A stretch of 64,000 bases of DNA from Marsupella aquatica (Eukaryota > Plantae > Marchantiophyta). The stretch lies in NCBI GenBank assembly GCA_973895155.1, contig OZ316895.1:18960508-19024507 (forward strand). Reading direction: 5' to 3'. Every line of letters starts with the position of its first letter. The stretch's first letter is position 1. Made by a program: the position numbers and the translations under genes. Positions 28,652-58,039 of this stretch are shown piece by piece. The notes under the pieces were generated by a model. That model did no database searches. It was not told the DNA's origin and saw nothing but the letters and a program-made list of their open reading frames with translations.

Positions 28652-30256
28652 TGATCAGCTGTTTATGCAGAGGTCGATAGCCATGCCAAAGAAGCAGGAT
28701 GGAGTGGACAATTACCGGTGCAGAGCACCATTTCAGAGCGGGTCACTCATGACAACCCTAAAGGCCCACATCAGAATACCAACAAGGGAAAATATGTTTG
28801 CCAATGTCACTGAGAAGAAGAGGCAGATGACAAAACAGGAGCATCGGCGGTACATCAAGCGCTTGGAGTTAGAATTTGAGGACAGAGGCCGCAACCTGGG
28901 TATTCCAAGCTGAGATGAGGAGAGGGAAAGGCGAGTGTGGGAGGAGAGGCCGAGGCAGGCACCCATTTTCTCATTCTAGTAGGAAGCAACCTTTGTAGGC
29001 ATTCAAAGGGAAGCAGGTTGGAAACTCAAGCTCCAAGCCGGAAGTGTTGGATTGGAGGACTACAAAGACAAGGGCTTCGTCTATGTAGAGGAGCGGCCTG
29101 TACCAGGAGTCAGGACTTTTGGCTGATCCATGGGGACCTGGAACATCAGGTAAGCTCTAAGTCTCCCCCAACAGAGTTACCTCCTTTAGAATTTGATCGA
29201 ATGGAGGAGGCCGAGCAAGACCTATTGGAGTGGCTGAGGGATTTGGCCAAGGTGACCCAGAACAAGGAGATTGAGGGAGTTGTTGGGGGGAGAATGGCCA
29301 GAAGACATTTAGCAGCTTAGTCCAAGACAAGCCAAGTCGCTCACCAATTTTGATGATGTCCTTAGGGAAGCATGGGAGGTGAGGCCGTGATGGCAAATCA
29401 TGCCAGTTTCTCTGGGCACTCCACATATGCACCCAATTGGGCTATGAAGTATGGGGAGATGTGCAGTTGTTAGCTCTCAACATCTTTGGAGCAAAGTTGG
29501 AGATGGGACCGTTTATCCAGAAGGAGTTATTGGATAAAAATTGCTTGGAGGAAGCAAAGGAAGAAGGAAGAACTCATTGGGCGGCTTAGGAGGATGGAAG
29601 TTGGGAAAGGAGGAATGAAGGCGGTTAAGCAGGCTCAAGACAAGCTACTAGTTTAGAAGCATGACCTGAGCAACATGCAAGAGCAGCCAGACACTACCAA
29701 AGCAGATAACTAGCTTGTCAAGGGTAAACTCGCGTGCCCAAACTCAATTGCAATTAGCCGACATTTTCAAGGAGAGACAAAACCAAGAGCAAAGGATCCA
29801 AGATCTAAAGGCTGGCAATTAGGCCAACATAGCGGTCTACAATAAGGCCCTGGCAGATGCAGGGAAGGCAGAGAAGGCAGTACAAGTACAACTCAACAAT
29901 CTCCGCCAAGATTACCAGTAGAAGTGTGTTGATTATGAACCAAACCCGATGCAGCCCAATCCCTATTGAAGGCTGATATTGCAGCTTTGACGACCAACTT
30001 CCAAGCCAAACTGCAGCAGAAGGATGACATGCTTGAGCAACAATACAAGAAGATGAACCAGATGGAGTTTGATGTCGTCCATGAGCTAAATAAGGAGTTG
30101 AAGGAAACCAAGGAGGAGAAAGAGGCTTTAGAGAAGGAGTTGGAGGAGGCTCAAGAGGAGTTGGAGGAATATGTGCAGAAGGTGGAGAACTTGCAATGAT
30201 GAGCAAACAACAACACGGAGCAATTGAAAAAACTAGCCAAAGCAAGCAAGTCCTCA
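28652..30256 (+). pseudogene. Degraded accessory ORF, 3' piece (coiled coil)
   Basis: KDDMLEQQYKKMNQME...ELNKELKETKEE is homologous to KDEMLDQTYAKMNQME...ELDKELRATREE of the 53000 ORF. Confidence 0.8.
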
Positions 30257-35789: not shown

Positions 35790-37035
35790 AAGGGGTGCCT
35801 AGGACAGTTGAAGGTATGGATCAGGCAAGTGATGGACAGTTGGGGCAAAGGATCCAGACACATACCAATGAACTGCGTCTCCCTTTGCATCACCCATTGA
35901 GGATTAGACGTCATGACTCCAAGTTGTGGAATAGAGAGGTGCTTAGAGCAGGCTGGGGCATAAATGCCCGAATGAGATATCCCTGCACAGAGTGTCAAGG
36001 ATACCACTAGATGACCCTAAACCAAGTGCATTCTCATCTTCAAAGGCATGGAAGACATCCAATCCGCAGTGTGTGGAATGTGCTAGAGGAAGAGGATTCA
36101 TCAGATGAGGAATGGAGAGCAGATTTTGAAAATGTGAATACTACAAGGCACTCTACATTCTTTCATAACGTCACTGGTCATGCAAGGCAACAATGCCAAA
36201 GATGAGTATGTTCCACAAGGAGGTTCCGAGACTTCTAATGAGGACGGGGCAGATGTTCCCAGGATGGTTTCAGATATTTTTCAAGACCTGGATGCACTTT
36301 ATGACGATGCAGAGGCACAGGGCAACGCAAAACCAGACATGCATGGTGTAGGTCCTACAGACCAAGAAGAGTTTGACATTGGAGAAGGAGCTAGAGATCG
36401 ATGATGGTCAATTCTTGGGAATTGGGGCCGACTTGGAGGAAGCTACATCCCCATTGTATGGTGGTGCAAACTGCTCCAAACTAGGATTTATAGTGATGTT
36501 CCTCAATATATGTGGATGTCATTGTGTGCCCAACATATGTGTAACAGAGTTGTTGATGTTCCTACAAAGGACAATACTACCCGCTGGAAACATTGTTCCT
36601 AAGAACATGTATGAGACAAAGAAGCTGATGAGCAAACTTGGTTTGAATTATGTGTCTATCCATGCATGCCCAGATGGCCATGTACTTTTCAAAAAAGAAT
36701 ATGTTGATTGCCTATCCTGCCCTTAATGCGGAAAGCATAGATATAAGAACTTTGGGAAGTCAACTCAACTTGCTAAGGTCTTGCGGCATTTCCCTCTCAT
36801 TCCAAGATTGCAGTGCCTCTATAGGTGTCCATCCATTTCTAAGATGATGACTTGGACCTCTGATCACAAGAGTACAGATGGTTTGCAACGTCACGTTGGA
36901 GATCCAACCATTGGAAGTACATAGATGAGAAGTGGCCGGACTTTGCAGCAGAGAGCAGAAATGTGAGGTTTGGTCTAAGTCTTGACGGTGCTAATCCTTT
37001 TGGAGACAAGAACAATGTGTATTCTTGCTGGCCAG
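35790..37035 (+). pseudogene. CACTA/En-Spm transposase (Tnp2-type), 5' fragment
   Basis: IHACPDGHVLF, KVLRHFPLIPRLQ, RNVRFGLSLDGANPF...YSCWPV. Confidence 0.88.
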
Positions 37036-37640
37036 TGTCGTGCGCATACACATCGCTACACAACATACATCGCTTGTCACATACATCCAGACATAGTCAC
37101 ACTGCCACATCACAAACACAAGAGAATGGAATACAAGTGGAACTCATGTCCACACATGTCCAAAACCCACAATAATCTCCTCAACAATCGGAACAACGAT
37201 CGACGCCAACAATACGTACTCAATCCCGTCCAATCCGATCACACACATATGTCGAGCCAACGCACCTTGCACTCAAGGAATCCACACTACATAGAGAGAG
37301 CTCTCAGCCACCATAGCCACCACACAAGCTCCCATCTCCAAGGCTCAACATTGAAAGATGACCTTTCAATGCCTCACAAGAGAGAAGTACCCTCTCACAC
37401 AAACCTAACGGAACCTTATCGGCTCATATAGCACACATACCAAACATACGGATTTAGATAATTAGTACAATACACTCTAACACTACCTAGAATGGTGTGA
37501 TAGTTGTCGTGCGCATACACATCGCTACACAACATACATTGCTTGTCACATACATCCAGACATAGTCACACTGCCACATCACAAACACAAGAGAATGGAA
37601 TACAAGTGGAACTCATGTCCACACATGTCCAAAACCCACA
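37036..37640 (-). repeat. 3' LTR region: two 136-bp direct repeats (37036-37171, 37505-37640) with a 333-bp spacer
   Basis: Near-identical TG...CA units; the PPT abuts 37640. Confidence 0.75.
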
Positions 37641-37819
37641 ATCGCCCCCCTAGCTGGGAGTAAGATCCCCTAACTCTAGCTAGCCATGAGTTCTACAAGG
37701 TTGATATACATCTTTTCAGGTGTGAAGATCAGGAGGCCGGGTGCAAGTGAGCCCCATCGATCACCTACCTGCAATTCATATCTTCCAAGAGAACACAAAT
37801 GATAACTAGTCGGCTTCAC

Positions 37820-37963
37820 CGACACTGAGGACACAACCATGATCCACTAGGAATCACCTGCAATGGTGGTGTCAAACATGACATGTGCCATCCTCTAGAA
37901 CACTTATCACAAATCAACATAGTAATTGCTCCCTGAGCAGATCCACACAACATACATTTCAAG
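37820..37963 (-). pseudogene. PHD finger at the integrase C-terminus
   Basis: CMLCGSAQGAITMLICDKCSRGWHMSCLTPPLQVIPSGSWLCPQC (C4HC3), in frame with integrase once the solo LTR is removed. Confidence 0.9.
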
Positions 37964-39684
37964 TGTAATAGAGTACATTAGTTAGAAATGATAGAAAAAT
38001 TATAAATTTTGAACTTTTTCTAAGTCAATGGTGCATAGTTACTTTTTGTAATAATTTAGATCAACTGAACACTTTACCTAATGTCATGCTACACCGGAGA
38101 CTACTTCCTGTTCTGGATATTGAACGACAGCGGAAGTCTTTACCTTTCTATCGGATAACACTCAAGACATGGATATAATTCAAGAAGCTATGCAAGAGAA
38201 TACCTACACAAGAGTTCAGCAACCAGATCAGACGGCACTACTCCAACAAGATTAGCTCTACTGCGATCATAGTTAAGTTATATAGATCTACGCAATTTTA
38301 GTTAAATACTTAAAGTAGTCAGAAAAGTCTCATACTTTTTCAGGAAACAGACATGTGATTTGAAAGTTAAAAATATTTTTGTTTTGTTGTTTTATGCTTA
38401 GACGCGAAAGCGCTAATGCGCTTATGCGCCCATGCTCTTATACACGCATGCGCCCAGCACTTAGAACATTTTTTGTTTTTTTTGTTTTCTGTAATCTTTT
38501 TAATACTTTTACCTATTTTATTGAGGGACTTAGGCACCTCAGAAAAGTCTCATATTTTGCTAGCATGAAGAATATACATCAGAGACCACTTCAGCAAAGT
38601 CTCACCTTTTTATGACTTTTAGTTTAGAAACTAAAATTTGGATAAAACCCCTATTTATTAGTTTTACCATAATTTCACTTTTACAATAGTTAACACCTGA
38701 AATATCTTTTAGTTAGCTTTTCATTCCAGGAACATTCCACTGAACCTTAGGTACTTCTGTAGTACGATTTTATTACTTTACTTTTACCCATGACCCTTGA
38801 GATAAGAAAGGGCATGTCCTTTCATTATCTCTTTTCCCGTTGATTCCTGCTAGCCTATAGATAGTAGTTCTCATGTCATTTCTGGTGTGAAGAAATTTCA
38901 TGAGCGCTCAGTTGCAAGATTACAACTTTGTTACCTCCATTTGTAGCAAACACTCTATGTTGTTGATGAGTACTTAATACAAAGGATTTCTTCCCCTTCC
39001 TTGTGTTTGAATGTTGAAATTTCAGACCAGAGAAGTAAAACTTTGTGATTGATGAATCTTTTGAATGTGTGGAGATAGATTCCTTAATTGGTGAAGGCTA
39101 TACATTCTTGAGTTCTTGATGCATATGTTTTTGGCATAACATTGCTTGTGCACGAGGTGCAAAGAATATTATCACCAAATTACCTGTGACTTTAAGTTGT
39201 TGATGATGGTGCTTGATATTTGTGACACAAAGTACCGATTGGATGCTGAAGTGATTGGTTGTTAATCTTAATTTAGTACCTCGGAAGGAAAGGTTGAGAT
39301 GTGTAGACGGCACCCTAACAACCATCCCAGTAAAGTATTCAATTCCAGAAATATTCTTACAAGTTCAATACCTTAAATCATCTCAAATTAAGTTATGTTG
39401 AGAAGTTACCTTGGTATTTTCCAGACTCCCTCACCATACCTCAAGATTTTATTGTGTTTTGTTAATTGTTTCCATTTTGTTATTTTATTTACAATGTTAA
39501 GCAAACATTCAAAACTATGTCTTGCTGAGCAACCATAGTAAAAGGCTCACCTTTGTGTTTTTGTTACTTAAGTCATTCAAAAGTGCTAAATCATAGAAAA
39601 TCATTCCTTACATGTTCTTCCATGGGAACGAATACTGAGTTTTGGATCTTAAATGTTTATTTATGTCCCTAGTGTGATACTACA
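37964..39684. mobile_element. Solo LTR, 1721 bp, AT-rich
   Basis: TGTA...TACA; TSD TCAAG at 37959-37963 and 39685-39689. Confidence 0.88.
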
Positions 39685-42600
39685 TCAAGCCAGCACGAAC
39701 ATGTGCCAAGCTTGGACCTACTGTGCCATCAATGTTGGGAAGGTGACATGGTGCACAGTTGCGCACATGATCCTTCCAAACCATACCATCGCGTCCCTCT
39801 AACATCAGGACACCAGAAAGCAACACTTCACGCACATGTAAGATTGTCCGGCCTGCGGTCACATCAAGTGTTGTGGGTGTTGTCTGTTGCAAATAAACAT
39901 AATCACTAGGATGAAATCGACGAATGCTTGCACGGTAACCTCCTCCACGAATAGTGGCATACCTCAAAGTATCACGATGTTGGGCAATGGCAAGGTTGTC
40001 AAAAGCCATGGGCATCACTCTCTGAAATACCCGTGCTCTCTCTGAACACACCTTGACCCAAACATCAGGATTATCCAAGTTCACAACTGGTGCAGCATCA
40101 CGACAAATAGCTGCTGGCAAATCTAACTCTCTACCATAGAGCAAAAAGTAAGGTGAGAAGGATGCAAGTGATGCTTGCCGACTGAAACGGTAGCCCATAG
40201 CTAACCAAGGTAGCTGGAGATCCCAATCTCCCAGATGACCAACCTTCAAGCCATACTTACGCAATCCATCTCAGCTAATCCATCTGTCTCAGGATGATCA
40301 CGAGAGGTAGTACGATGATCAATCAGAGCTTGTTCACACAAACTCTCAAACTCTCCACGGAACTCAGTTCCCTGATCAGTCAACACCTCAACTGGTGCTC
40401 CAAAATGACTGAGTACACGGTCCAAAAATGTAGCAGCAACTTCTCCACTGGCTTTATCTGGCAACGCCACTAGCTCAATCCACTTGGAGAAGTGCTCCAC
40501 CATGACCAAAACATACCGATTATGACGTTGGGTAAGAGGTAATGGACCAGAAAAATCCAAACTCCAACGATATCCCAAACCATGATCGGTAACAGGTGCA
40601 CTTGGGGAGTGGGAGCATTAAATGATGCTCTCACTCTATCACATACCACACACTTCGCTATCAACTGCTGGACATGAGTGTGCATACCACGCCACCAATA
40701 CTGTGTCTGTAGCAAGCTGTAAGTGCGCTTCACACCAAAGTGACCCAACTCCTCGTGCGTATGTCGCACCAAATGTACTCGTTGTGATGGTTTTGGTACC
40801 AGCAACACCATACCATCATGCAGTACTCTTAGAAGATGGTTTCCTTCCCACCGAAACCTCTTGGCTCTTTGCAGAACCCTGTCACGCTCCTTGGCATCAA
40901 CACTGCCAACAATAGAACCACTGCGCAAATATTCCAACACCCTCACATCATTGTGAATATCTTGTTGTCAAAAGTTACCTCACCAACATCCACATCTGAA
41001 GACTCATCATCCACTCCATCCAATGAGGTAGAGTCCACAGATCCACTGTATGCTGGCACCCAACAAAGAAAGGCAGATGCATGCCATCCTGGCACCATCT
41101 CCTTATCTGACTCATCATGCCATCTGGCTCTAGTCTCATCCTACTGACTGGTACATGGATTGCAGCTTAATCCATCTGCATCCAAGTTCACTTTTCCAGG
41201 CCTGTGCACCACCTGGAAATCATACTCCTGTAACAACAATGCCCATCGTGCAAGCTTCCATGTAAGCTTGTCAGACTCCATTAACCACTTAAGAGGCTAA
41301 TGATCAGTGATCAAGGTGAAGGGGTTACCAAACAAGTAGCAACAAAAGTGTGCAACAGCCCACACTGCTGCCAAACACTCTCCCTCATAAGAGGTATACT
41401 TAGCCTCTGTTAAATTGTTTGATCTACTAGCATAAGCCACAACAAACTCATTCCCCTCATCATCCTTCTGAGTCAGCAATGCTCCAAGTCCTACTCCACT
41501 CCAATCAGTGTGTAGCTGAAATGGTCTGCCTGAAATGGGTCTTCTCAAAATAGGGGATGATGCCAACCTTTGCTTCAACTCCTGAAAGGCATGCTCCTGG
41601 TCATCACCCCAAATCCATTCCTGATCCAACTTAGTGAGTATGGTCAAAGGTTTAGCAAGCTGGCTAAATCCTTTAACATACCTCCTGTAATAGCTCGCCA
41701 ATCCCAATTCGCATGAACTCTATTCACATCAGTAGGACAAGGAATCTGTGTAATGGCATCCACTTTAGTTTGCTGTACACCCAATCCCCCTGGGTATATA
41801 GTGTGGCCCAAATACTCAATCTGGTCTTGGAAGAACTTACACTTGCTAGGATGGAGCTTCAACCCATGTGCTCTCAATCTCTCCAACACAATCTGCAAGT
41901 GTTGCTAATGTTCTTCCATAGTAGAAGAATAGACCAAAATATCATCAATATAACATCTGACAAAATCCAAACCTGCAAGGATTCGATCCATGACTCTCTA
42001 GAACTCAGCTGCCAGTGCATTCTTCAACCCAAATGGTAAGAATAACCACTGATACAAATGATCTTTGCCATAAGAATCAATCCCCCTAAATGCTGTCTTG
42101 GACCTATCAGCATGCCTAATTGGAAGCTGATGGTACCCTGCCCTCAGATCCAATGAACTGAAAACCTTTGCATGCCCCACAACATCAAAGATCTCCTCAG
42201 GTGTGGGCATGGCATATCTATCAGATTTTGTCTAGCGATTAATGAGTCTGTAATCACCACACATGTGCCTATCTGTGTAATTGCCATGCACATCCTTCTT
42301 GGCTGGCATCACTGTGGCAGATGCATACTCCCCATACAAAATCTCCACCAATCCAGCCTCCAACAAATTTTGAGTTTTGCTTTGAATCAGAGCTCTCTCC
42401 ATGTCACTGTAACGGTATGGCCTACGAAAGATTGGCGCATCACTAGCCAATTCAATCTGAATACCAGGACCCTTTAATGTCCCCAAATCCTTCATGCTAA
42501 ATGCAAAACAATTCTAGTAACTCTTCAGGAATCGATGCATGCAATGTCTCTCCTCCCCTGTCAACTTAGGGCCAAGCTGTGGTTCCCAACTCTCCACCAA

Positions 42601-42895
42601 ATCCCTAATATCTCTTTGTAGGGTAGAAGAGATAGCCGATGATTGCTATTTAGCAGTAGATTGAGCAGTCCCTTCCTGCTCAACAATCTGTCCAGCCTTG
42701 GCCAATCCTACCATAGGTCCATGGACTGTCTGCTCGCCCCCAACTGTGGTCAGTACTGTCTCAGTGGACCGCAAGCTCACCAAGGGACAATCAATAATTC
42801 CAGCAGAGCGCATCCGCAATTGTTCAACTACTCCCAAGCTGATAATCCAAGTCAAACAATTCAGATCCATTGTTTGACCAAGAACCTGGAGCCGC
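39685..42895 (-). pseudogene. pol: Gypsy pol (end of MTase, RT, RNase H, integrase), degraded
   Basis: LDLRAGYHQ, LPFGLKNA, YIDD, VAYASRS, HEELGHFG...C..C, LTDQGTEF. Confidence 0.9.
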
Positions 42896-45800
42896 TGTCC
42901 GGGGACCAGTTTAAAGCGGTATAAAAGTAGACTTTTTAATACTTTTAGGGACTTGGATTTTACATAGTATTTTCTTAAGTTGGTTTAATCTTTCTTAATC
43001 CTAATCAGTTTCCATTTTAAATACAAAATTACACTAAGCTATTTTAACTTAAAACACTAAATTTCTACTTACATCTAAATTCGATGCATCACTCACATTT
43101 CCATAACAATTAAACATTTTTACCACAAGAGCATTTCATCATTTCGATCACATAAAATAATCCAAACTCAACTTTTTATTTCAATCATTTTCAAAAATAT
43201 GAAGTTTGGTTCGGGTTTACAAAAGTGTTTTTCGGTGGCTCATCTCCTAACTCAGGTTTCTCCACTAAACTCAGCTCAATCATCAGGTCAGGTCTCGGCC
43301 TCAACCTCATCAATGGTTTCCCCCAAACATGTTGGACACAATTTTAGTCTCCGCCGAGCTTCCTTCACGTCGTCGCTCCTCTTACACTCTTCTTCTTGGC
43401 TCTTCTTCCTTCTCTCTTCAAGTTTCCAGTCCCATAGCAAAAAAAACTTACGTCCGCTATCCTCATACCCCATGGCAGCGGATTGTCCCTAATTTAAAAA
43501 TGATTTCTATCACCGGATTCCACTCACTAAATGAATGCAAGTCAATCAACTTACAATCCTCTTTAAAATTCCACAACATCAGATGTAAAGATTTACAAGT
43601 AACCCACACTTCCAGCTAAAACGTTTTTAGTTAATCTCATGGAAAATCACTCCTTCTTCATGGTCCATGATAATTAAATTTAATCCATTGCTTCAGGTCT
43701 CCATTCTTAAACATTTCATCGTACAGTCTTCATTGTTTTCCGTTCGCCCTTGCCTCTTGTTCCTGCTATCCACTCAGTCACTTGTCATTTCTTTTCGGGT
43801 TTTGCTTGAAAGCTCTCTCTCTCTTGTCAGTTTATTGTCTCTTTACTTCCTTATTCTGGCTCTCGTTCTTTTTGTCCATATGCTCCGCTTCTTTCGTTCA
43901 AACTTTGGGTTTTTGATAATCTCAATCTCGTCTCTCATCACCTTTTGCCTTCGCTTCTTTGCGTTTAATCTTCTAGCCTCTGATCCTTAGCCTCAGATGA
44001 ACACTTCAACACGATCATTGCCTCCTGTCACCAGATCTCTTATTGTGGATGAACGTCTTTCTTTTTCTCAGATCACCACAACACCGTCAACTCTTACTTC
44101 AATCTCTCCTTCCTGAAATTCAATAGCGCGCTCGGCCTCTTCCTGGGATTCTCAATCTGACATGTTCTTGCAAAAATTCCTCAAAACAATAACAATGAAA
44201 ACCATGCCTCTCCAATTCTTTCTCTGTTTCAACATTTCCCCAGCTTCACCTTGTTTACCCGAAAACTCAGTTCTCCACAATAACATCATCGTTTCTTGAG
44301 CTTCCCCTCTTCTGTATATAGCTTTCTCTTCTTTGTTTTTCATCCTATAATGTTCATCGGTCTTCTGAGCTTGCTTTCGAAATCTCTTCTTTCTGAAAAT
44401 CCCAAAGCTTCAACAACATCTCCTCAGCCGATCCCTCCTTTCCATCTATTAGCACCTGGCTTGTTCTTGTCTCTCCTCACAAAGAAAACTCATCATCGTA
44501 ACATTCCTCCAAAGACGAGATCCACAACATCCATAACACTCTGCTTAAAAATGGTTGTCTTCCATTCCTCTCCCCTCGAACCTGCTTAGCGCTCTCAAAG
44601 TCTCTCCCTTGTTTTGCTTCTGAACTCCTCTCTAACCTCTGCGCCTTGCTTCGCTATCTCTCTACTTATAATTCTGATTCTCCAAGTCGCTTTCCCCTTT
44701 CGGTGCTCCTCCGACTAGTCTGCATTGCACTTCAATTCACTCTAATCGAATGTCCTCTCGCCCGCCATCGCCAGAAATCCTTGTTCTCCTCTTTTTCATA
44801 AAACTTCTGATCTTCCCCGTCACGAACCCCTTTTGTGCACGCTACATAAATCACATGCTTTTATTGCCAGCACCATCTCATCGCCGAATCTCATCACCAT
44901 CTCCTCTATTCTTATCAAATCGCACCTATTCAAAAGAAAATTTGCCCCCACTCCTCGTTCTTCATCGCTTAGAATACAGTCAAGATGAGAATTGCCTGTC
45001 CTCCGTCGCCTTTCCAAAAATCCTCAAATCTTCATCCATACACTCCCATATTCCAACCGTTTTTCTTCTATCACACCCGAAACTCCGACGCACGCCTCAG
45101 CCTTCGTCCGAAAAATTTTAAAAACCTCAACATTCAACGAACATCATCCTCGGCTGAATCTCACCCTATCACCCCGAGTACTCTAGCGCGCACCACACCC
45201 CCGAGAATTTTTCTAACTGCCCCTTATTCCTTTGGCCATTTCTTCCTCCTTATTCACTTCCATTCCCCATCCGCGCGTCAACTCAAACTGCCCCTTATGC
45301 CCGAGCGCACACAAGCCTCCACGTGTCATCTTCTCACAATTCTGTCATTAAAGCCCTTTTTAGCCTTGGCAAAACTGGTTTCTCTATTTTTCTTTTGTCT
45401 TATTACTGTTTTCCTACCACAACAAAAATCTCACCCAAATTGCATTCCTTCATCAAATACCTCCAACTCAAAAATAAGGCCTTCACTTCCCCTCCTCTAT
45501 TTTCCATCCCGACGACATTCACCCCCACCAAACCTGTGTAGCCTCCGGCCTACACCACCATCATCATCGGAGTTTCATCTCAATCAATATAATCCATGAG
45601 CCTGAGTGAGCTGAGCTGAGCTGAGCTGAGCTGAATAGAGTAGTGTAAACCTCAAGTCGAGCAATGATCAACCTGAATTAATCTCCCCTCACCAATAATG
45701 GTACTCCCAAATGAATCTATAAAAATGAGCAAAAATAAACCCTAATATGATAACATAAGCCTAAGTCTACATTTTCTCATGAATTCTAAAGGTGAAAACA

Positions 45801-48800
45801 TTCTTTCACCAAAACTCATATCATAGGAAAACTCTAAAACCAAAATTTTGAATTCAATTAAGTTCCTTAACTCTCAACTAGACTATCATATGAATAAATT
45901 TCTAATTTTATCTTTCTTTCCTACTCTCAATTTCAAAACCAGATTCCTATAAACAAGATAAACAAGACAAACAAGACTCAAAAATTCATCTCTCTTCGTC
46001 ACGAATGTCACTCTCTTGAACTGCATCTTCACCATGTTCGCCATCAGAATTCTCCAAGGTGTCCTCCAATTCCTGCTGCCTTCGCTTGAAAATCTTCACT
46101 CCTCTTGCCGGCATATCTTCCATGATGTTCCGTCCCGTCGAGTTCTCGAATGGAGTAAGTGGCATTGGGATGAACTCTCGTCACCACAAACGGTCCTTGC
46201 CACCTCTGCGCAAACTTCTTCTCCGTAGAATGCTGATTCTCAAGGTTGCTCTCATAAATAAGCACCCAATCACCCTCCTCAATTGCTCGTGGTCGAATTC
46301 GATGTTTCCGGTCGATGTAGTCCTTGTTCTTCATGCGCACCACCCTCATTTTCTCTAACGCCTCTCGAACCTTCTCAGGTGTCTGATTCAAATGGTCGAT
46401 CTTGGTAGCAAGTAACTCCTCACGACTGACATGGTCTCTCCATCCAATCGTTCTCCAGCTCTTCACGTCCTCCTCAATCGGCATCAAGGGCAAATGTCCC
46501 ATCATCAACTCAGCTGGCGCATATCCTGTGACTGAACTACACGTCAATCTGTCCGCCATCAAGGCGAGTGGTAAATAGTCTGGCCACTCTCTGAATCTCC
46601 CTCGACATGACTTAACAAGTGCATTAACAATCGGTGGGTGCCCTCTCTCACTCTTCCCATTCCCCTTTGGGTTATACGCACAAGTAAGACTCAATCTAAT
46701 ATGGAACTTCCTAAAAAAAAGATCGGCTTCCTCCATGTTGAGTGCTCTCCTGTCAGCTCTCAACCGATCAAAACATCTGTGCCTCGCTATCATATCTTCC
46801 AAAATAAACCTACAAATAAATTCAGTCTTATTCAATGGTAACGCTCGACCCTCGACATAAGATGACAACTCTTCTCTCGACAAAACCAAAAACTTTAAAC
46901 CTCTAACCCCTCTCGGCATATAAACAACATCTAGGACCCATTGTAACCTCATCGCCAAAGGATAAGTAGGACAAAGACCATCTCGATGCTTGACTTTTGA
47001 ATAATATTGACAAACCGGACAACTCTCAACATACTCTCGAACCTCTGTATAACAACTTGGCCACCAATATAAGCCCTTGACCCTCTCATATGTTGCTTGG
47101 ACCCCTCTATGTCCTGCTGACTCATCGTCATGACTCTCTGTCAAGACTCTCAACTTAGACTCATTATCACCAATGACCCTTAATGGAATTCCTCCTCGTG
47201 TCTTGGGTCGCCTCCATAGAAGTCCTTCTCGTAGTAAGTATCCAAAAGCCTTCCTCCGGATTCTCTCAAATTTGTCTCGTGTCCATTCAGCTCTTCTCTC
47301 CAGTGTGCTCAAATATCTCCCAAGAGTAAGTAGCTCGCCTGAGTAAAGCTCCTCCTTAAATTCTACCTTCTCAACCTCCAATGTCTCCGTACTATGTACA
47401 CCTGCACTCTCCTCCTCTCCAAAACCATCCTCAAATCTTGCTCTCGAAAGCATATCCGCAACAGGATTATCTTTCCCTACAATGTGTCTCAACTCCGGGT
47501 TAATCATCCGAATAAATGCAATCCATCTCAGCATCGCAATGTCTAGCGTATCACAGTTCGCAATCATCCCCAAAAGTGGCTGACAATCCGTCTCAAGTAT
47601 CACATATGCCCCTATCAGGTAATCCTTCTCCTGACGAAGTGATGACTTAGCTCCCCACAACTCTCTTTTAATCTGTGGGTATCGCCTCTGTCGCTCTGTA
47701 AAAATCTTCGCCCCAAAACGTGTAGCAAACCGTTGGCCTTCTCCATCATCCTGTCCAACAGCCCACCCAGTAGCTGTGGGACTCGAGTCAACCGTGACAA
47801 TGATCGGCCTCCCGCAAGTGTAGTCCAACGGTCGTAATACAGGCGGGCTCAGCAAAGCTTTCTTCAATCTCATCATCGCCTCCGTGTGTCTTTCTGTCCA
47901 GACAAACCTGCGCCCTTTTCTCAACAACTCATACAAAGGCTCAACGGTATGGGCAAAATGAGGAATCCAAATACGATAAAATATACAAGCTCCTAAAAAT
48001 CTCCTAACCTCTGTAGGCGAAGTACAATCTCCTAATTTACTAATAGCATTAACTTTTTCTACACTAGGACTTTGCCCATAAGAACCACAATGTTGTCCCA
48101 CTACCATTACTTCTTTTAACCCAAATGCAGATTTCTCTCCTGAAAGCGTTACTCTAGCCTCTATCATGCGCTGCAAAATTGCCTCAACATCCTGCTACAT
48201 AAATCACATGCTTTTATTGCCAGCACCATCTCATCGCCGAATCTCATCACCATCTCCTCTATTCTTATCAAATCGCACCTATTCAAAAGAAAATTTGCCC
48301 CCACTCCTCGTTCTTCATCGCTTAGAATACAGTCAAGATGAGAATTGCCTGTCCTCCGTCGCCTTTCCAAAAATCCTCAAATCTTCATCCATACACTCCC
48401 ATATTCCAACCGTTTTTCTTCTATCACACCCGAAACTCCGACGCACGCCTCAGCCTTCGTCCGAAAAATTTTAAAAACCTCAACATTCAACGAACATCAT
48501 CCTTGGCTGAATCTCACCCTATCACCCCGAGTACTCTAGCGCGCACCACACCCCCGAGAATTTTTCTAACTGCCCCTTATTCCTTTGGCCATTTCTTCCT
48601 CCTTATTCACTTCCATTCCCCATCCGCGCGTCAACTCAAACTGCCCCTTATGCCCGAGCGCACACAAGCCTCCACGTGTCATCTTCTCACAATTCTGTCA
48701 TTAAAGCCCTTTTTAGCCTTGGCAAAACTGGTTTCTCTATTTTTCTTTTGTCTTATTACTGTTTTCCTACCACAACAAAAATCTCACCCAAATTGCATTC

Positions 48801-48870
48801 CTTCATCAAATACCTCCAACTCAAAAATAAGGCCTTCACTTCCCCTCCTCTATTTTCCATCCCGACGACA
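42896..48870 (-). mobile_element. Internally deleted Ty3/gypsy element with a 2.6-kb 3' LTR (42896-45517) and truncated 5' LTR (48194-48870)
   Basis: TG...CA ends; 4-bp TSD CCGC at 42892-42895 and 48871-48874; 677-bp near-identical repeat 44841-45517 = 48194-48870; PPT GGTGGGGGTGAA at ~45518-45529. Confidence 0.88.
46044..48176 (-). CDS. pol: Gypsy pol fragment: RT C-terminus, RNase H, integrase (710-aa open frame)
   Basis: VRRFLG, VTVDSS, NPVADMLSR, H..GHRG...C..C, GNGKSERGH, WQGPFVV. Confidence 0.9.
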   Translation of the reverse strand: MQRMIEARVTLSGEKSAFGLKEVMVVGQHCGSYGQSPSVEKVNAISKLGDCTSPTEVRRFLGACIFYRIWIPHFAHTVEPLYELLRKGRRFVWTERHTEAMMRLKKALLSPPVLRPLDYTCGRPIIVTVDSSPTATGWAVGQDDGEGQRFATRFGAKIFTERQRRYPQIKRELWGAKSSLRQEKDYLIGAYVILETDCQPLLGMIANCDTLDIAMLRWIAFIRMINPELRHIVGKDNPVADMLSRARFEDGFGEEESAGVHSTETLEVEKVEFKEELYSGELLTLGRYLSTLERRAEWTRDKFERIRRKAFGYLLREGLLWRRPKTRGGIPLRVIGDNESKLRVLTESHDDESAGHRGVQATYERVKGLYWWPSCYTEVREYVESCPVCQYYSKVKHRDGLCPTYPLAMRLQWVLDVVYMPRGVRGLKFLVLSREELSSYVEGRALPLNKTEFICRFILEDMIARHRCFDRLRADRRALNMEEADLFFRKFHIRLSLTCAYNPKGNGKSERGHPPIVNALVKSCRGRFREWPDYLPLALMADRLTCSSVTGYAPAELMMGHLPLMPIEEDVKSWRTIGWRDHVSREELLATKIDHLNQTPEKVREALEKMRVVRMKNKDYIDRKHRIRPRAIEEGDWVLIYESNLENQHSTEKKFAQRWQGPFVVTRVHPNATYSIRELDGTEHHGRYAGKRSEDFQAKAAGIGGHLGEF

Positions 48871-48874
48871 CCGC

Positions 48875-49831
48875 AAACCCTCTGACACAGAGGCAATTGT
48901 AGTGGTGCCAGTCAAAAATCCCATAGCACGCTCTCTCTCATTAGTAGTAGGTTCCACTAACTACTGGAGAGCTGTGTCCCAGACAAGTCCAGGGCCACCT
49001 GCTCTGAATGCATATGAAGCAGATTGTAGTTGGATTGTTGCCAGTGGGCGCCCAACTGCATTGACCATTGCCAATGGAGGTCTATCAGGTTGGGTCACAC
49101 CCTATGCACGATGCCCTGGATCCAAAACATCATCCACCACTAAGGCTGGTGAGCGTGGAATGCTGTCAAATGCGCGCTTCAGCACCTCACATGGGATCAA
49201 ATTAGTCCACCACAAGCGTGGACAATGTGCACAAGAACCCACACATGCAGCATCCAATAACACAGCAGGTCCAATCCAAGACCTCACCTAGTGAACACTG
49301 GCAACAATCCAACTACAATCATCACCTAACAATGGTACATTCTCCAAAATGTATGCTGGAGACTGTGTCTGCTGTAGCTGGAGACTGTGTCTACTGTAGC
49401 TGGAGATGACGCAGCACCTGTAACATCTCCCAAAACAATGCAGAGCATGGATCATGAAGTCTATGCCCAACGCCAGCTCTAGATTGGCCCTGACATGGCC
49501 AACCAGCAAGCACCAAATCAATGGGGTCAACACGATGCAGATGATCCGCCCCCAACAATGAAATATCAGCAGGTAGTGCATGCTAATAACCACGAACAGC
49601 ATCCACTGGCAGCAACTGTGGATATCTATCCACCAACATAGCCACATGTTGCAATGAGACCCTCCGTGCTATCTCATCTGTCTCCACATACAAATAACGA
49701 TGCACAAGAATTCCTACCTGAAGAACAACAGCCAATCCAGTGCTAATCCCACCAAAAAGATCCAACAAACAAATACCCTCCGGTGGATACTGCCAAGCAA
49801 TAGGAGTGGTATCCAATGGTGAAAGAGTCAC
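48875..49831 (-). pseudogene. C5 cytosine DNA methyltransferase domain (DNMT3-like) within gypsy pol
   Basis: Motif I LLDLFGGI, IV LAGWPCQGQSRAG, VI YILENV, VIII AHCPRLWWTNL, IX ERERAMGF; motif X LGQTMDL lies at ~42860-42885 across the nested insertion. Confidence 0.88.
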
Positions 49832-50800
49832 CGGTCCATCTGCAAGAGACTGATCTGCTCCTAACTGTGGTGTAAAAGCATGACGCTATGCATCATGTAC
49901 CAATCGTACTGCTGCCTGTGGCAAGGCCTGTGTAGTGCCCCACACTGGTGGCACAACACTGCCAATAGGTAATCCCTACATGATGTGCTCCTCATGAGAC
50001 TCCTCCAATGGTGGAACATCTGCTACATGCGCATTACCCTCAATCAAATCATCAGGTCCAGTAATGACACCACTGAATGCTGCCAAAGACAATGGTGTGG
50101 ATTTAGGGTCTCCCACAGGTCCACTAAATCTCACAGGCAATTTGCTCAATCAAGCATCAATCTTCCAAATCCTCTAGACGCAATCCCAATCCATGTATGG
50201 CAGACTTACCCAACATCAAGGGCTGAGCACCAGTATCCAGTAACACTCTCTCTAGCTGGTATACTGTTCCAGATGGCCCAACTAATCAAAAGATACCACT
50301 TCGATTATCCAATGACACAACACTAGGTTTAAACCTAGTCCTCTCAAATGTAGGGCATGCTGGTAAATTCACCAACCTCACTGGTGCTGCATGCCATGTC
50401 TCACTAGTAGCAGTAGGTGGCATGGTCTTCATTGCTTCAACACTGCAAGTTGCTTCTACATGGGAAGCAACCACTAGAGTGTCCTCACAGAGTGTAGCTG
50501 CCAATTTGAACACTTCTGCAAAACCAACTCCCAAGTTCAACATGTCTGTTGCTGAAAATAATGGGGTGCGTACTATGGTAGTAGCCGCCCCCAGTAGGGT
50601 ACCTGTCATCCCTACTGCATCACTATCTGATTCTGCCAACTTACGCACACCAGGATTTGTCCGAACCGCGTTCATAGAGGTACTCTAAACTACCTCTAAC
50701 AATGTAAAAGACTGAGGAAGCTTTGTCTGCTGACTTGCATCCCTCCTTTGTGGATCTAGCTCCACTACTGCTCCTCAGGGCTCAAAAGCTTTGGCTGCCC

Positions 50801-53800
50801 TGTGATGCCTAGACAGGAATCACTCGGCCAGTTAAGGGGGTAAAGCAGGAAGGCACCCTAGAAACACCTTAGTATAGGGACAAAACAAGGAAAATATAAA
50901 CAATTAGGGGTGACCATGGAACCCGGGCCGAGGCCGGAGGTAAGGACGCTGGGGGTGAAAACTCGATTAGGGTTAGGGCGCGTTAAGCGTCGGCGGCTAG
51001 GAAGGATCAACAGGAGGAAGGACCGGAAGAGGAGAGGGGTAAGGAGCGCTTGCAGGAGATGGTGGCTCATTTGCGAGCACGAACTAGGCAGACGACTACG
51101 GGAGGCCAACTACTATCAGCTGCTTAGGCAAGCACTCGGGGAGAGAGTAGATACCGACGAGCGACCTAAGGAGGGTATGAGCAACGTCAATCAAGCGGCA
51201 CATTTCTGGGGATGCCTGTTCGAACGGGCAACTGAGTACATCAAGACTTACGAGGACGAGGAATCAGAAAGGGCAGCTCGAGAATGGCAGGAGCTCGCTC
51301 GATTGTGGGAGCTGCAGAAGACGGCTTTCTTAGGAGGCGAACTCATCAAGGACGAGTTCTTGTGGACTCCTACTTCCAATCAGCTCGACGATCTTCTGTT
51401 TTGCAAAGATAGCGTCGTCGGCATCCGAGAGGCCATCAAGAACTGCAACGACATACACTGGGAATTGAAGGGTAGCACGGAAAGGTGGACCCAGGCAACG
51501 GTGCTAGGAGAAACCTCCACGGCAGCAGAGATGAAGAGGAAGGGAGCCGTCAACGATGAAGCCACCCCGGCAAAAAGAACGAGGTCGGCGGCACCAAAGA
51601 AGCCAGCCGAGCAGCAGAGCAGGAGGCAGGGAGAAGCCGAAGAGGAGGAGGTTGATCCCATCAAGGCCATTCCAACCAGGGATGACACCTGGAAGGGCTG
51701 GGCGGCAACCCTACCGGTGGAGGTGCAACTACATTTTGCACGGGAGGAGGATGCATGCTTTACGGCCATGCAGACCAAGAAGTACCAAGGCTTCATGGCC
51801 GGATCCGGCTTAGAGGCCTTTGTAAGATTACCATGGCTGAACCGGAGTCAGACCTATTAGAATTCGTGGGGTCATGGGAACCCGAGATCAATTGCACGAG
51901 GATATATGGGAAGGATTTCTATCTTACTCCCAAAGTGATTGCCGAAGTGTTTGGCTTGCCGATAGGCAATAAGACCAAAGTTGATACCAGGAAGACCTTG
52001 CCTGACAAGGAGTTCCGGTCGTTCCCCGGGCCATCAACGAAGAATGGCTTCTTCCAGAACACCTGCACCAACCCGCACATAGGAGAGATGATCGACTTCT
52101 TGAGGGTGACCATGCATTGTAACTTGCCGAGGGCAGAGATCGGCAAGGCACAGGTTTATCTGGTAGAGAGGCCAGACCCAAGCCGGGACTACAACGGGTA
52201 CCTCCTCAACCAATTGAAGAAGATCTTAAAGGAGGAGCAGCAGGTAATCGGCATGGGGAGCGTGTCGCGGCTTGGCTATCACATGCCACTGTTGTGCCGA
52301 TATGCCAGAGGTCAGACTTTTGCCCCAGTACTTCCCCTGCAGGTAAGGGCACCCAAGGAAGCTCCAGCACCGAGGCCGGTAGCAAAGAAGCCTCAACCAC
52401 CTGTTAGCCCTACGATCGAGCAGGTGTTTAGGCCAAGGAAGGAGGACTTGCCGATGCAGCAACCAGGCATGCAGAGTCTGCTGAAACTAGTGGAGAAAGA
52501 AAAGAGATTGGCATTGGCAACGACAACGGCAACGGCAACAATGCAGGACACTACTCCGGAGGTAGGCCTACACCGGCTCACAAGAGAAAACCCCTTTGCT
52601 GGAGACAAGGAGAGAATCAGGCCGGAATCCAAGCCAGGTGTTCGAATGTATGTGGGACTCTCAAGCTCTGAATCTGAGGCGGAATTGCCTGAAGCTCCTA
52701 CCGACGAAGAGGAGAGGGAGAAGCCGGACGTCCAAGAAGTAGAGGAGGCAGTGGAGGACTTCAGCCATGATAACTCCGGCTATGGGTCGGACCATCACGT
52801 TCCAGGAGTAAGGACCTGTGGCCGGTTTGTCCCCACACTTCCAAGGGTAGTACGAGGGGACCCCAACCAGCAGAGTAGCCCTGAGTCTCCCCCACCAAAT
52901 GTTACTCCCCCGAGCTTCGACGGCATAAAATAGACGGCGCAGGAATTTTAGGAGCGAATCAGGCAGGAAGAGAAGGCAGCCCTGGTCAGGGAAAAGGATT
53001 TGCCAGGAGGAGATTGGCCGGAGGACATCAGGCGGCTAGCCAAAAAAGGAAGCAAACCTCTAGCCATGATTGAAGAGATCCGCAAGATGGCTTGGGAGCA
53101 GAGGCCGCGATGGGCGATGCCGATCACTTCTACTTACTCCACCTACGCTAAGAATAGAGCCATGGAGTATGGTGAGATGTGTGGGGAACTTGCGCTCGGC
53201 ATCTTTGGAGAGGAGTTGGAGGTAGGACCCTTTTTCCATAGGGAGCAGTTGGAGAAGCACCAATTAGAAGAAGCGGTGGCTTTAGAGAGAAGCAAGAAGG
53301 ACGAGGTCATTCGGCGGCTTAGGAGGATGGAAGCCGAGATTGAAGATCTAAGGGCGGCCAAGAAAGCCCAAGATGAACTGCGGATTAAACGGCATGAGCT
53401 GAACATCATGCAGGGGCAGTTGGACACCGCGCAGGCTGATAATCAGAATATCAAGGATAAACTGACTCAGACGCAGGGAGAGTTGGCCGATACGATCAAA
53501 GAGAGGGAGAAGTGGAAGCGAGAGCTGAGGAATGCAGAGGAGGCCCACATAACAGCCAACAGCCGGGCCATGGCGGAGACCCAAAGAAAGGAATGGGCGT
53601 TAAAGGGGGAGCTCGAGAAAATCCGCGGAGCCCTTGAGCAGAAGGAGGCCGAGGTAGGAAAATCCTATCAAGGGATTATGGCGCTGCAGCAGGAGCTTGC
53701 GTCCCTGACGGCCAGCTTCAAGGCCGACCTAAGGGAGAAGGACGAGATGCTCGATCAGACTTACGCCAAGATGAACCAGATGGAGTCTGTCATCATTGCA

Positions 53801-55271
53801 GAGCTCGACAAGGAGCTAAGAGCAACCCGAGAGGAGAGGGCTACCTTGAAGAAAGAACGGGAGGAAGCCCAAAAGGAACTAGAGGAGGCGTGCAAGGACC
53901 TGGATGAGACCCAGGAGGAGTTGGAGGAAATCACGAGGAAGATGGAGAACCTCCAGCGGCGGGCCGACAACCAAACAGAGCGGCTGAAGAAACAAGCCGC
54001 AATATTTAGGTGCTTGTCTTCATCAGGCCCAACTCCAATTGGGGCAACCAAGTTACCAGGAGTGGTACTGGCCGAAGAAAAAGCCGCGCCACCTGCACCA
54101 GTGCCGGAAGTAAGTGGGAAGGGGAAGGGACCAGCTGCCAAACCAGAAAAGAAGAAGAAGCGGAAACCTTCAGGGTCAAGGAGTAATCCGACTCCACAGG
54201 CCGTGGTGACCAAGGAGGTAGATCCAGCACCAACCTCCGGCATGAACACGGCAATAGATCCCGCTATCATCAAAGGTGGGGATGGTGCGGCCCAAGCAGA
54301 ACTACTCAGTAATGAGGCCGGTATCCCAGATCCGCCTCTTGAGCAGGCCGGGGAGACCGTAGCCGATAATGATTCCCGAGCCGATGCCGACGCCGATGGT
54401 GGACCCAGTCAGGCCGATGGAGAGTTGACTCAGTCAAGGGCAGGTAATCTGTCAGAAAACGAACCTACGGCAGTGGCTGAGGAGGAAGCGTTGGGGGCGT
54501 CCATTGAGGATCCACCACCGGTGTCGTGACGGTGCAAGGGCGCCGTTCCTTTTAGGAAGGGCGGACGTGGAGGGAGGAGGCGTGAGTGGGTAGGGCGGGC
54601 GCTGATCTCCAAGTTTAGGATTAGGATCAGGACCAGGAGGCGGCCCTGACACTTAGCTTAGTGGGATTGCGGTTCCACTGGTAGGAGCAACACTTGTGCT
54701 CTTGCCTTGCTGTACATAGGTAGATCCGGGCAAGTAGATTACTGTTAGGTAGTTTAGGCTTACGCTGCAAGGAATTAGGCGGATCCACTACCAGGATAAG
54801 TACCTGGGCAGCGGGGAGCTCAGGGCCTCTTCTTTAGCAAGTTTTTAGTTTGCACCAGCCGGGCTGGGATCAAGTAGTAAGAGAAGCTCTCGGTTAGTCA
54901 TACAGTGACCCTTGTGTATATTCATGTTTCCTCATGCCTAAGAGCTGAATAGAGTTGGCCTCACGGCTTAGTTCGCAGAGCTTGTGTATGAGATGTACTG
55001 TTTGTATGGCAAGTGCATGGTATGACTCAGTCAGAAGGAGTCATTTTGCTATTTGTGTGTCGCATTAACTTGTGTGAAGAGTGCCCACATCAACTAGAAG
55101 GAAGGAAAGTAAGCAGGGGAGTGAGAGTTGGATGTGTCGAGCTGAGAGAGGTCTTAGCGGCTTAACCAAGCCTATTGGGGATCATTCCGGCGGCGGAATC
55201 CAAACATACCTAACAAGACGGAGGGGAAGACGAGGGAAGGCCTAGATTAGGCCGGCTACGTATCTCATGAC
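50801..55271 (+). mobile_element. ORF-containing LTR-like unit (~4.5 kb)
   Basis: Starts TGTGATGCC; family motif TTCCGGCGGCGGAA...AAACATACCT at 55185; right end and TSD not resolved. Confidence 0.55.
50910..54529 (+). pseudogene. ~1200-aa accessory protein: plant-transposon-protein-like domain plus long coiled coil
   Basis: Three consecutive ORFs joined by one frameshift (~51855) and stops (~52931-52950); LLEFVGSW...IYGKDFYLTPKVIAEVFGLP; heptad-rich region 53250-53990. Confidence 0.7.
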
Positions 55272-55604
55272 CCGATGAAGGATCTGTCCAGTATATGTGT
55301 GTAAAATGTTAATAGTAGTAGTAGAAGGTTAGCAGCGTCCCATGCCGCTAAGCCGCGGAAACGGCCTCGCCAAGCGCGAAACTTGCGGGAATCGGCTTGA
55401 GCTGGGGGGGTTTCTTGGGTTTAGGGAGCCATGGGACGCACCACATGCCCCACGTGTCAAAGCTGCTGATGTATCCATATGTGCAGTGCCACTGACACAT
55501 GAATCCCATGGTGGCAAGGTCTCCATCAGCTCCATAAGATGTGGAAGGACCATGGGATGTGGAAGATCCATAGGATGTAGATGCCCCATCACCAGAAGTA
55601 GGTC

Positions 55605-56699
55605 TCACCTGGTTCTGAGGTCCCACCATTTCTGGAGACGATGCCATTTCATCTTCAATCCAATGATTCCCCACTCCACTTGTACTTTGTACCCTGCATG
55701 CATCTTGTTGAATGATCTAACTGCTCCACGAGGCAGTTGCATAGTGCGGATTTCAGTTTTGCTGTAGCCTCTCAAAATATAGTGCTCCTTTCCCTTGTAG
55801 CCTGAATCACCCATAAGAAACTCGTAATATTCTCCAATGTTCACAAATAAATTCTGGAAGTTTGCTTCAACCCAGGAATTATGTAGAATTGTGCAGTCAT
55901 GAAATGATCCTGGATATCCTGGATCTATGAATATGAAGAAACCATTGTGGTCAACTACCACGGTTGAATTCATGCAATACATTTTCTTATGGCCCTGGTA
56001 CCATCTCTTATGTCTAGGATCCTCAAAAGGTTTTCTAATTTTTACAAGAGTTCCATCCACAATCCCAATACAACCTACAAGCTGAGGAATGGCCTACCCT
56101 AAAGATCTTTGCTCCTCCTGAGATGGCCATCTAATCTCCTCAGCGATTGCCTAGTTGACACAAGTAGCCACAAACAAGGCATCGTCGCATACAGTAGCCC
56201 TACACCAATTCCAGCGACTTGCATCAAAGTTCACTATGTTGTTGTGCTTCAAATAAAGCACAAAACTCATGAGACGCTGATCAGGGGACAATTTGCATGG
56301 GCAGCTAGAAACAGTGTGACGGGAGAGTTCTTCAAATTCCTCAGGTGTGAAATTTGTCAGATCTTTAAACTGCTGTGAGTGGCCAATGTGTCGTGTGAGT
56401 AAATCATTCACTGGCAAATTGTGGATCACAAAACTCTGGTTCTCTTGGGAAAGCTCTATTGGCTCAAAGGATTCTATCATAGTCAAGTAACCTCTCATAG
56501 CAGTTGCCAGGATGAGATAGAGCTGCACATCCAGGTCAGTAGCAAAATTGTCATCACTACTACTATCACTACTAGCATCCATGTTGTCAACTTGGAACAA
56601 CTCAAAGTCCTGAATGTCAATCGACATCTTTGCACACCAGCGAGAAAATTTTGGGACAACAAAATAAGTTTGTGAGGTGAAACAAGATGCAAAACTCAT
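55605..56699 (-). pseudogene. PIF/Harbinger transposase (DDE_Tnp_4-type)
   Basis: VDGTLVKIRKP, PGSFHD, LMGDSGY, FNKMHAGYKVQVEWGI.GLKMKW; N-terminal FKDLTNFTPEEFEEL. Confidence 0.87.
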
Positions 56700-56794
56700 A
56701 CATACACTACAATAAACACAGCTCGGGACACGTTCATGATTAAGAGCTCACAAATGATTCCCTAAAAAAAGAAAGAGAAACATGATTCAACAAT

Positions 56795-56970: not shown

Positions 56971-58039
56971 TAGTAGTTTATATGAAGAGCAGAAACACAT
57001 AACTAAGTGCAGCGAGGGAAGGGATTCAAGGAACCTGTATTCTAATGTGAAGGATTCTAGTCACGCTAGGCCAGGTACCTTCGTGATGAACTTAGTGATG
57101 AACTTAGTGATGAAGTCTCTCCGATGCCTAAATTAAGGCAGTCACTCCTGCAAAGATCTTTAGTCAAGGCTGCCTTGGTCACCTTTAGGTTCACTTGTAG
57201 GAAAAAAATTCAACGTTGTTTCAGCAACAGCCCCGTGAAGAACAAGATTGCTAATCATTCTCAACTTTGAATAATGAAGGCAGGGCACAAAAAACCACAT
57301 TGATGGGATCGAAGAAGCTAGCGTGTACCTCTGGTTTATTTCTAATGTTCTTCGCGCAATGAGCGTAGTCTAGTGTACTAAGAGTTTCATCCAGTGTCAA
57401 AACAGGACCAAGACTAAAGGCAGTCCAAGCCAGACCACAAATTGCAACAACCCGGTCACCAAGCCAGACCTACAGCAAATGAAATGATTCCTAAAACTTA
57501 CGCAAATGCCTGTGTGAACCTCATTGACACTCGACAATTGACCTTCATTTGCGCCACCCTGCTCCCCCAATTGTACTTGCTACCAAATTTGCCACTTGGA
57601 GAATGGTGAGATACTCCAAACAATTTTCCATCCACAATGTTGTAGTCCATGACCGCCTCCGGTTTGTGAAACTCCTTTCAGTTCCCAACATTCATCCAAC
57701 GCTAAGATCCTCACCTTCTATACTCAACACAAGTCCAGATTTCAAGTCCTAAACGCCCTCCAAAGTCAAAACTCTTCATTTATTTGTCTCTGAAGTCAAA
57801 ACTTTACGCAACAACATTAGTACCCCTATCCTTAATCCTATCGAGGGTTAACTTTACCTTAAAGTTAATATACGACTGTAATATGATGACGCGTGTCGAT
57901 TAACTACTGACTCTAGTAGAGTTCTATTTATTCTTGGTCGAGTTACAAAAGGTGAATGACTTTATGGATATCTAAACCTCGACCACGGTTTAAAGCTAAC
58001 CATCCTTCAAACATGTTTGACTTTACAAATATCTCTATT

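Follow-up and report, generated by a model that had tools for sequence, protein, structure and literature searches.

Gypsy retrotransposons that carry a DNA methyltransferase (MTase) are known from Klebsormidium nitens, where KnitGypsy-Dnmt3 was described by de Mendoza et al. (2018, PMC5890265). The element analysed here lies on the minus strand of a 64,000-nucleotide stretch of DNA from Marsupella aquatica, referred to below as the window. The two have in common the Gypsy domains, an intronless Dnmt3-like MTase under purifying selection and split repeats like those of DIRS elements, a layout given in the legend to Fig. 4 of the 2018 paper. The Klebsormidium protein KFL_013780020, a protease-MTase, falls in the window's MTase clade with a local support of 98, and its neighbour KFL_013780010 is a relative by reverse transcriptase (RT). 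The window family differs in its land-plant hosts and in the place of its MTase, which the 2018 text assigns to pol and which here ends the first open reading frame (ORF1) before a conserved stop. Because this in-frame stop separates the MTase from the RT, the family is a variant and not a plain member of KnitGypsy-Dnmt3. The main text of the 2018 paper has no mention of a PHD finger, and the parts of it considered here do not discuss target-site duplications (TSDs), readthrough or circles.

Other described elements share further parts of the design. The EpiLTRs of Cymbomonas and Euglena (bioRxiv 10.64898/2026.05.21.726589) are long terminal repeat (LTR) elements that, as here, combine a cytosine MTase with a chromatin reader. 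Their MTase is DNMT4-related and is accompanied by an adenine MTase and a chromodomain, and the authors set them apart from streptophyte Gypsy-DNMT3 elements. Gypsy-7a_cRei of Chlamydomonas has a PHD finger in its Gypsy polyprotein, proposed to lessen harmful insertions; unlike the window family, it has near-normal LTRs and no MTase in the domain list consulted (PMC9940879). SymbioDIRS-Dnmt3, a split-direct-repeat DIRS element (PMC5890265), shares the A..B-A-B layout and the Dnmt3 cargo. The window family is distinguished from DIRS elements by its DDE integrase and 4-bp TSDs. Split-direct-repeat DIRS elements use a tyrosine recombinase; no such family was found among the window pieces scanned with Pfam, which contain a DDE integrase (rve) instead.

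Two papers that cite the 2018 work (PMC12344493, PMC11982613) add nothing further on the family in the parts of their text considered here. A literature search, with Repbase and most subscription papers outside its scope, found no paper on land-plant copies, a readthrough site or circle integration in this family, and the DNMT tree of the 2026 preprint may include such elements. The idea of an MTase as cargo is already known; no published account was found of the readthrough site, the sister clade or the evidence for circle integration described below.

The element in the window is almost certainly a dead member of an old streptophyte lineage of Gypsy elements that has gag, protease and a DNMT3-like MTase in its first frame. 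Taken as a whole, it is on balance best explained as a dead Gypsy copy with gag, protease and MTase in ORF1, a second frame (ORF2) reached by readthrough, and integration from circles.

The element and its methyltransferase

The window was read by six-frame translation and by Pfam scans of 27 pieces. Its minus strand encodes protease, C5 MTase, RT, RNase H, integrase and PHD finger, in the Ty3/Gypsy order protease-RT-RNase H-integrase that also holds in relatives. The features are listed in the direction in which the element reads.

50160..50798, minus strand: end of the gag-protease linker and N-terminal aspartic protease (LLDTGA); tblastn with Marchantia P0029 and P0001, Pfam
48875..49885, minus strand: DNMT3-like C5 MTase with motifs I, IV, VI, damaged VIII and IX; Pfam, tblastn
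42896..48870, minus strand: nested insertion 1, Gypsy, TG..CA, TSD CCGC; Pfam, repeat comparison
42649..42895, minus strand: MTase motif X and ORF1 tail; tblastn, P0001 ends at the same place
42640..42648, minus strand: conserved ORF1/ORF2 stop TAG, then CAATCA, likely readthrough site; tblastn, family comparison
41144..42639, minus strand: RT and RNase H, broken; Pfam RVT_1 and RT_RNaseH
39685..40967, minus strand: integrase with H2C2 zinc finger, rve core and C-terminal tail, broken by frame changes; Pfam, tblastn
37964..39684, no strand assigned: nested insertion 2, solo-LTR-like, TG..CA, TSD TCAAG; boundary and TSD comparison
37819..37963, minus strand: PHD finger, last domain of ORF2; PF00628 with E 2e-12, PDB matches
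37643..37655, minus strand: polypurine tract (PPT), near-identical to that of relatives; comparison with relatives
37505..37642, minus strand: repeat B1 including a leading AT dinucleotide (TG..CA); repeat comparison
37174..37502, minus strand: segment A2, placed by its position and length in relatives, 2 bases from B1
37036..37173, minus strand: repeat B2 including its AT leader, forms the right end of the element and matches B1 at 137 of 138 bases; repeat comparison
36352..37035, plus strand: CACTA transposase sequence, the insertion target of the element; PF02992 with E 2.2e-13 on 36864-37034

The original prediction had read the same domains, interrupted by two TSD-bounded insertions, and all parts were found in their places by Pfam and tblastn; the PF00145 and PF00628 searches that it proposed returned the MTase at 49394-49582 (E 6.8e-7) and the PHD finger at the value listed. 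Its junctions were also right, since tblastn runs across both insertions at consecutive residues of intact relatives (both flanks of insertion 1 reach P0001 residue 645, and both flanks of insertion 2 reach P0066 residue 981). The frame that it described is not open, with 15 premature stops and 6 frame changes within the tblastn matches. The six MTase motifs that it named (I, IV, VI, VIII, IX and X) are all present, but motif VIII is damaged, two arginines being read as cysteines. Premature stops also interrupt the MTase, and its frame changes once, where a short stretch is duplicated locally near 49376-49420. The protease has lost about 83 codons behind its N-terminal part, whose LLDTGA stretch at 50160-50285 matches Asp_protease_2 below the cut-off (E 0.002). 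Within the window, a search for gag, the 5' repeat and the A1 partner of A2 yielded neither gag nor a 5' A. The place of the 5' part is taken at 50801-55330 by a neighbouring element with a TG start, whose long ORFs on the plus strand match no Pfam family above the cut-off and resemble 6405-6649 and 29418-30238.

A 100-residue piece of the window MTase retrieved 63 homologs. The named ones come from Marchantia, Sphagnum and Calypogeia, and the long Marchantia proteins are gag-protease-MTase. In a metagenome scan from which 80 of 142 loci were kept, protease lies upstream of the MTase in 57 of the 63 loci with room for it and RT lies downstream in 54 of 60. A PHD finger is found downstream in 21 of the 25 loci with more than 4.5 kb, and it follows the integrase tail in 23 of 24. 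Where an expected domain was missing, the aligned cases are deletions or truncations. DNMT3A, DNMT3B and DNMT3C are the best PDB sequence matches of the family's MTase domain profile, ahead of DRM and HhaI. The structure predicted for the MTase domain of the intact locus L017 has a pLDDT of 96.7 and likewise places DNMT3A/B/C ahead of DRM and HhaI, with DNMT3A as the best match (TM-score 0.73/0.84); it was built on 60 sequences, an earlier model built on 13 having reached a pLDDT of 53.

Insertions are nested in the window and the metagenome loci were picked by MTase motifs; both facts would favour an MTase that entered this copy alone, as a separate insertion or through a single capture. Such an origin is nevertheless extremely improbable and is refuted as far as the data reach. 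The MTase keeps its position across dozens of loci and across named proteins from bryophytes and algae, it has neither boundaries nor a TSD of its own, and its tree follows domain position. Among 120 RT relatives, five show a protease motif ahead of RT and lack an MTase between the two, and none of the five belongs to the window's clade. Most of the 120 start downstream of the ORF1 stop and say nothing about the presence of an MTase. Neither family copies lacking the MTase nor separate boundaries around it, the two findings that the original prediction had singled out, spoke against an integral MTase among these motif-selected loci.

Purifying selection on the MTase, which the prediction had also raised, is borne out by a ratio of nonsynonymous to synonymous substitution (dN/dS) of about 0.2 between families. 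The ratio is 0.18-0.21 between the window and six loci and 0.17-0.21 between families, at a dS of about 1.5-1.8; RT gives 0.07-0.21 between families, and decayed sister copies give 0.65-0.93. Two points weigh against the family-wide reading. The loci include several duplicates, come mostly from one family and, by their manner of selection, cannot reveal MTase-less copies; and with dS near saturation (about 1.5) the dN/dS values are rough. The evidence supports an MTase that is an integral, DNMT3-like and constrained part of a Gypsy family reaching land plants.

The relatives of this family extend into algae. In a quick RT tree of 112 rows, from which L041 and short RT matches were omitted, the window groups with Calypogeia, Marchantia and metagenome loci in a clade of 11 rows (support 99), and Closterium and Klebsormidium elements lie further out. 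An MTase profile search over 1.84 billion representatives gave 296 matches at 1e-30; among the best 150, the MTase stands before RT in 20, after RNase H in 71 and alone in 59. A FastTree of 95 MTase rows, with MTase-only and short rows, the outgroup and host DNMT3 left out, splits exactly by MTase position, 26 versus 69, with a local support of 98. The first clade contains the window, bryophytes, Closterium and Klebsormidium KFL_013780020. In the second, sister clade, Scenedesmus supplies one named protein among 18 looked up. The sister architecture, found among P0193-P0332, places the MTase between RNase H and integrase, many members having a PHD finger and some a G-patch or Tudor domain; the literature search found no paper on it. 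An identity of these RT-then-MTase proteins as DIRS elements is ruled out, as long representatives have a DDE integrase after the MTase. Of the best 150 representatives, 43 have a PHD finger, and each of the 43 shows the sister architecture. The finger is found in both clades and also in the Klebsormidium RT relative P0165, so the pairing of writer and reader is older than land plants. The proposal that the design extends to a land plant therefore holds for the MTase-bearing Gypsy element in bryophytes and fails for the PHD pairing.

The stop between the two reading frames

The MTase had been taken as simply part of pol. It instead ends ORF1, and a stop separates this gag-protease-MTase frame from RT-RNase H-integrase-PHD in ORF2. 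ORF1 of the window ends at 42646-42648, at the same place as its close homolog P0001. The stop is present in 63 of 64 covering loci, as TAG in 43 and TAA in 20, with TAC in the remaining one, and RT follows in frame; for comparison, the most shared internal stop occurs in 7 of 24 loci. The divergent loci L017 and L063 also stop at this site.

The family context after the stop is CAA-YYN. A UAG followed by CAR YYA is the tobamovirus-type readthrough signal of plant viruses (PMC2754532), which the window, with TAG CAA TCA, matches exactly, while most relatives end the hexamer in C. The candidate readthrough stop of the window family sits after protease and MTase, not after gag. Readthrough, the simplest route to RT and integrase, is likely. 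Most ribosomes would then stop after the MTase, so that its production and packaging would match those of gag and far exceed those of RT and integrase. Several observations count against a readthrough signal of the strict kind throughout the family: CAACCC, one base off CARYYA, is found in 57 of 64 loci, the strict form is met only by the window, L017 and one other locus, and the algal-type relatives P0082, P0107 and P0202 have MTase and RT in one frame with no stop.

Split repeats, integration and surrounding sequence

The 3' end of the element reads PPT-B-A-B, a set of split repeats that the original prediction had missed. Complete relatives read either A-internal-PPT-B-A-B (L041, L065, L073) or A-internal-PPT-B, and the two complete terminal LTRs of an ordinary Gypsy element are absent: B does not precede A in any of the 25 loci whose 5' A is visible. 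The element is filed as Gypsy by its enzymes, and its repeat layout is non-canonical. A nested terminal-repeat retrotransposon in miniature as the origin of the 138-bp repeats is ruled out by relatives, which show the same layout and spacing (455-477 bases) after the PPT.

The ends of relatives are TG..CA. Exact 4-bp TSDs flank 8 of 10 complete relatives and one more has a single mismatch; these counts come from relatives, the left end of the window copy being lost and with it any TSD pair. Such TSDs in complete copies indicate that the insertions were made by the DDE integrase. The inner B|A joint is palindromic (GACA-GC-TGTC), and its halves minus the central 2 bases are the ends of the element. 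In all seven distinct non-PPT joints before the terminal B of relatives, the B start is intact behind GT or AT and the other side varies. The partner is a clean A end in L031, L065 and L073, filler with a PPT remnant in L041, bases from the side of the primer-binding site (PBS) with filler in L052/L055, internal RT in L072 and the internal integrase tail in L062. The window's joint before the terminal B also retains AT+TGTGG.

These variable A|B joints look like ligated cDNA ends, which gives about an even chance that integration proceeds from circularised cDNA opened inside one LTR. Because the PPT abuts B1, the product of reverse transcription would be an ordinary linear cDNA ended on both sides by an LTR of B+A. 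Host end-joining would close this cDNA into a circle, producing the variable A|B joint. Integrase would then open the circle at the palindromic B|A, lose the central 2 bases and insert it with a 4-bp TSD; opening an end-joined circle at this palindrome would yield the observed A-internal-B-A-B layout. The A-internal-B form could come from one-LTR circles or from recombination between B1 and B2.

The same layout could be reached with no circle if the split repeats were copied as a unit from an A-internal-B-A-B transcript by DIRS-like template jumps, a linear molecule ended by A and B being integrated. DIRS-type elements do have this repeat layout (PMC5890265), and three of the seven joints are simple and alike. 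The mirror form A-B-A-internal-B, which the circle model expects at equal frequency, is absent from all 25 loci, a result that suits template jumping and leaves the circle model in need of an unexplained asymmetry. The other four joints fit jumping poorly, as they have filler, PPT- or PBS-side remnants or internal sequence exactly at the B start with the 2-base leader kept, and the PPT lies directly against B1, the arrangement of an ordinary LTR. Template jumping is rather unlikely, and integration from circles is retained as the preferred route. Two further facts count against the overall account: L044 has no TSD, and B1 and B2 differ at 1 of 138 bases despite the badly decayed coding part. 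The only explanations at hand for this near-identity are gene conversion and the mobilisation of a copy that was defective beforehand. Folding of the region after A1 gave a small hairpin and no clear primer-binding or self-priming site. The left ends of L015 (7049-7289) and L016 (6335-6575) consist of an inverted PPT-plus-B block joined to an A end, which looks like an inversion product with the B end serving as the end of the element.

Nested insertion 1 consists of a 2.6-kb 3' LTR, a pol remnant at 46044-48194 and a piece of the 5' LTR, which breaks off after 677 bases and runs directly into RT. The LTR pieces differ at 1 base. The named relatives of insertion 1 are Riccia and Adiantum proteins, which together with the RT tree point to a seed-free land plant as the likely host, and its TSD fits the 4-bp pattern NCGN. 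A preference for NCGN is reported for the Phygy elements, in a paper whose main text has no occurrence of PHD, methyltransferase or methylase (PMC6317226). Elsewhere in the window, long inverted repeats at 123-2854 and 16796-21233 are 90-98% identical and accompany a 2053-base tandem duplication. The stretches 55605-56747, 57960-59051, 59721-63438 and 21101-24086 include a DDE_Tnp_4 nuclease by Pfam and, among them, pieces that we take to be CACTA-like and ORFs that are presumably Mutator-like. A short fragment at 57251-57469 resembles what we take to be a kinesin motor segment, possibly captured by a transposon.

Predicted roles and significance

The likeliest role of the MTase, though with only an even chance of being correct, would be de novo methylation of the element's own cDNA, so that new copies would arrive quiet or disguised. 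This role is suggested by the conserved catalytic residues together with DNMT3b, a bryophyte host enzyme for de novo CG and CHH methylation (PMC6453930), and it was proposed for DIRS elements by the authors of the 2018 paper (PMC5890265). The catalytic cysteine, the glutamate and both motif VIII arginines are conserved in at least 90% of 60 diverse members, the predicted fold matches DNA-bound DNMT3A, and Dnmt3 domains of Symbiodinium DIRS elements methylated CG (PMC5890265). All three observations speak against a different use of the MTase, namely methylation or binding of element RNA, silencing of sister copies or a part in particle structure. That use is a possible, less favoured reading. 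In its support, the Klebsormidium Gypsy enzyme did not methylate DNA in yeast, a result that its authors call inconclusive and that counts against a cDNA role (PMC5890265); expression at gag level would be more than one cDNA needs; and many algal-type members, in both clades, have WECQ and not WPCQ at motif IV. The observed/expected CpG ratio is depleted in the window and L017 (0.27-0.33) and is 0.76 in L024, values compatible with either role.

The PHD finger of the window has CHD4, DPF3, ATXR5, KDM5B and PHF21A among its top PDB matches, and the KDM5B finger reads unmodified H3K4 (PMC4225485). In 83 of 83 PHD fingers, the position two before the histidine ligand is Gly, Ala or Pro, and 51 of the 83 have an acidic residue before the first cysteine. 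PHD fingers that read H3K4me0 have no cage tryptophan two residues before the histidine ligand and have acidic residues near the first cysteine. The window finger lacks the tryptophan. It also has no acidic residues before its first cysteine, which weighs against such a reader. With slightly less than even confidence, the PHD finger on the integrase is predicted to read H3 unmethylated at K4; by binding this tail it would steer insertion away from active promoters.

Joined together, these parts tentatively describe an ancient green-lineage clade of DDE Gypsy elements in which end-joined LTR circles, cut at a palindrome within the LTR, would be a routine integration substrate, DNMT3 packaged at gag levels would methylate the circle and the PHD finger would then guide its insertion. 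If so, LTR circles, which are generally regarded as dead ends, would be an obligate intermediate in this clade. With the split repeats and their TSDs, the old question of whether such circles can act as true precursors of integration could be put to the test in a genetic model. The two MTase positions, each tracking one clade, would form a natural experiment on the movement of cargo within a polyprotein, and intronless 'DNMT' gene models in bryophyte genomes would be parts of transposable elements. A retrotransposon lineage found in Marchantia, the model liverwort, would bring its own de novo MTase, and transposable elements could write part of the methylation found on transposable elements in bryophytes.

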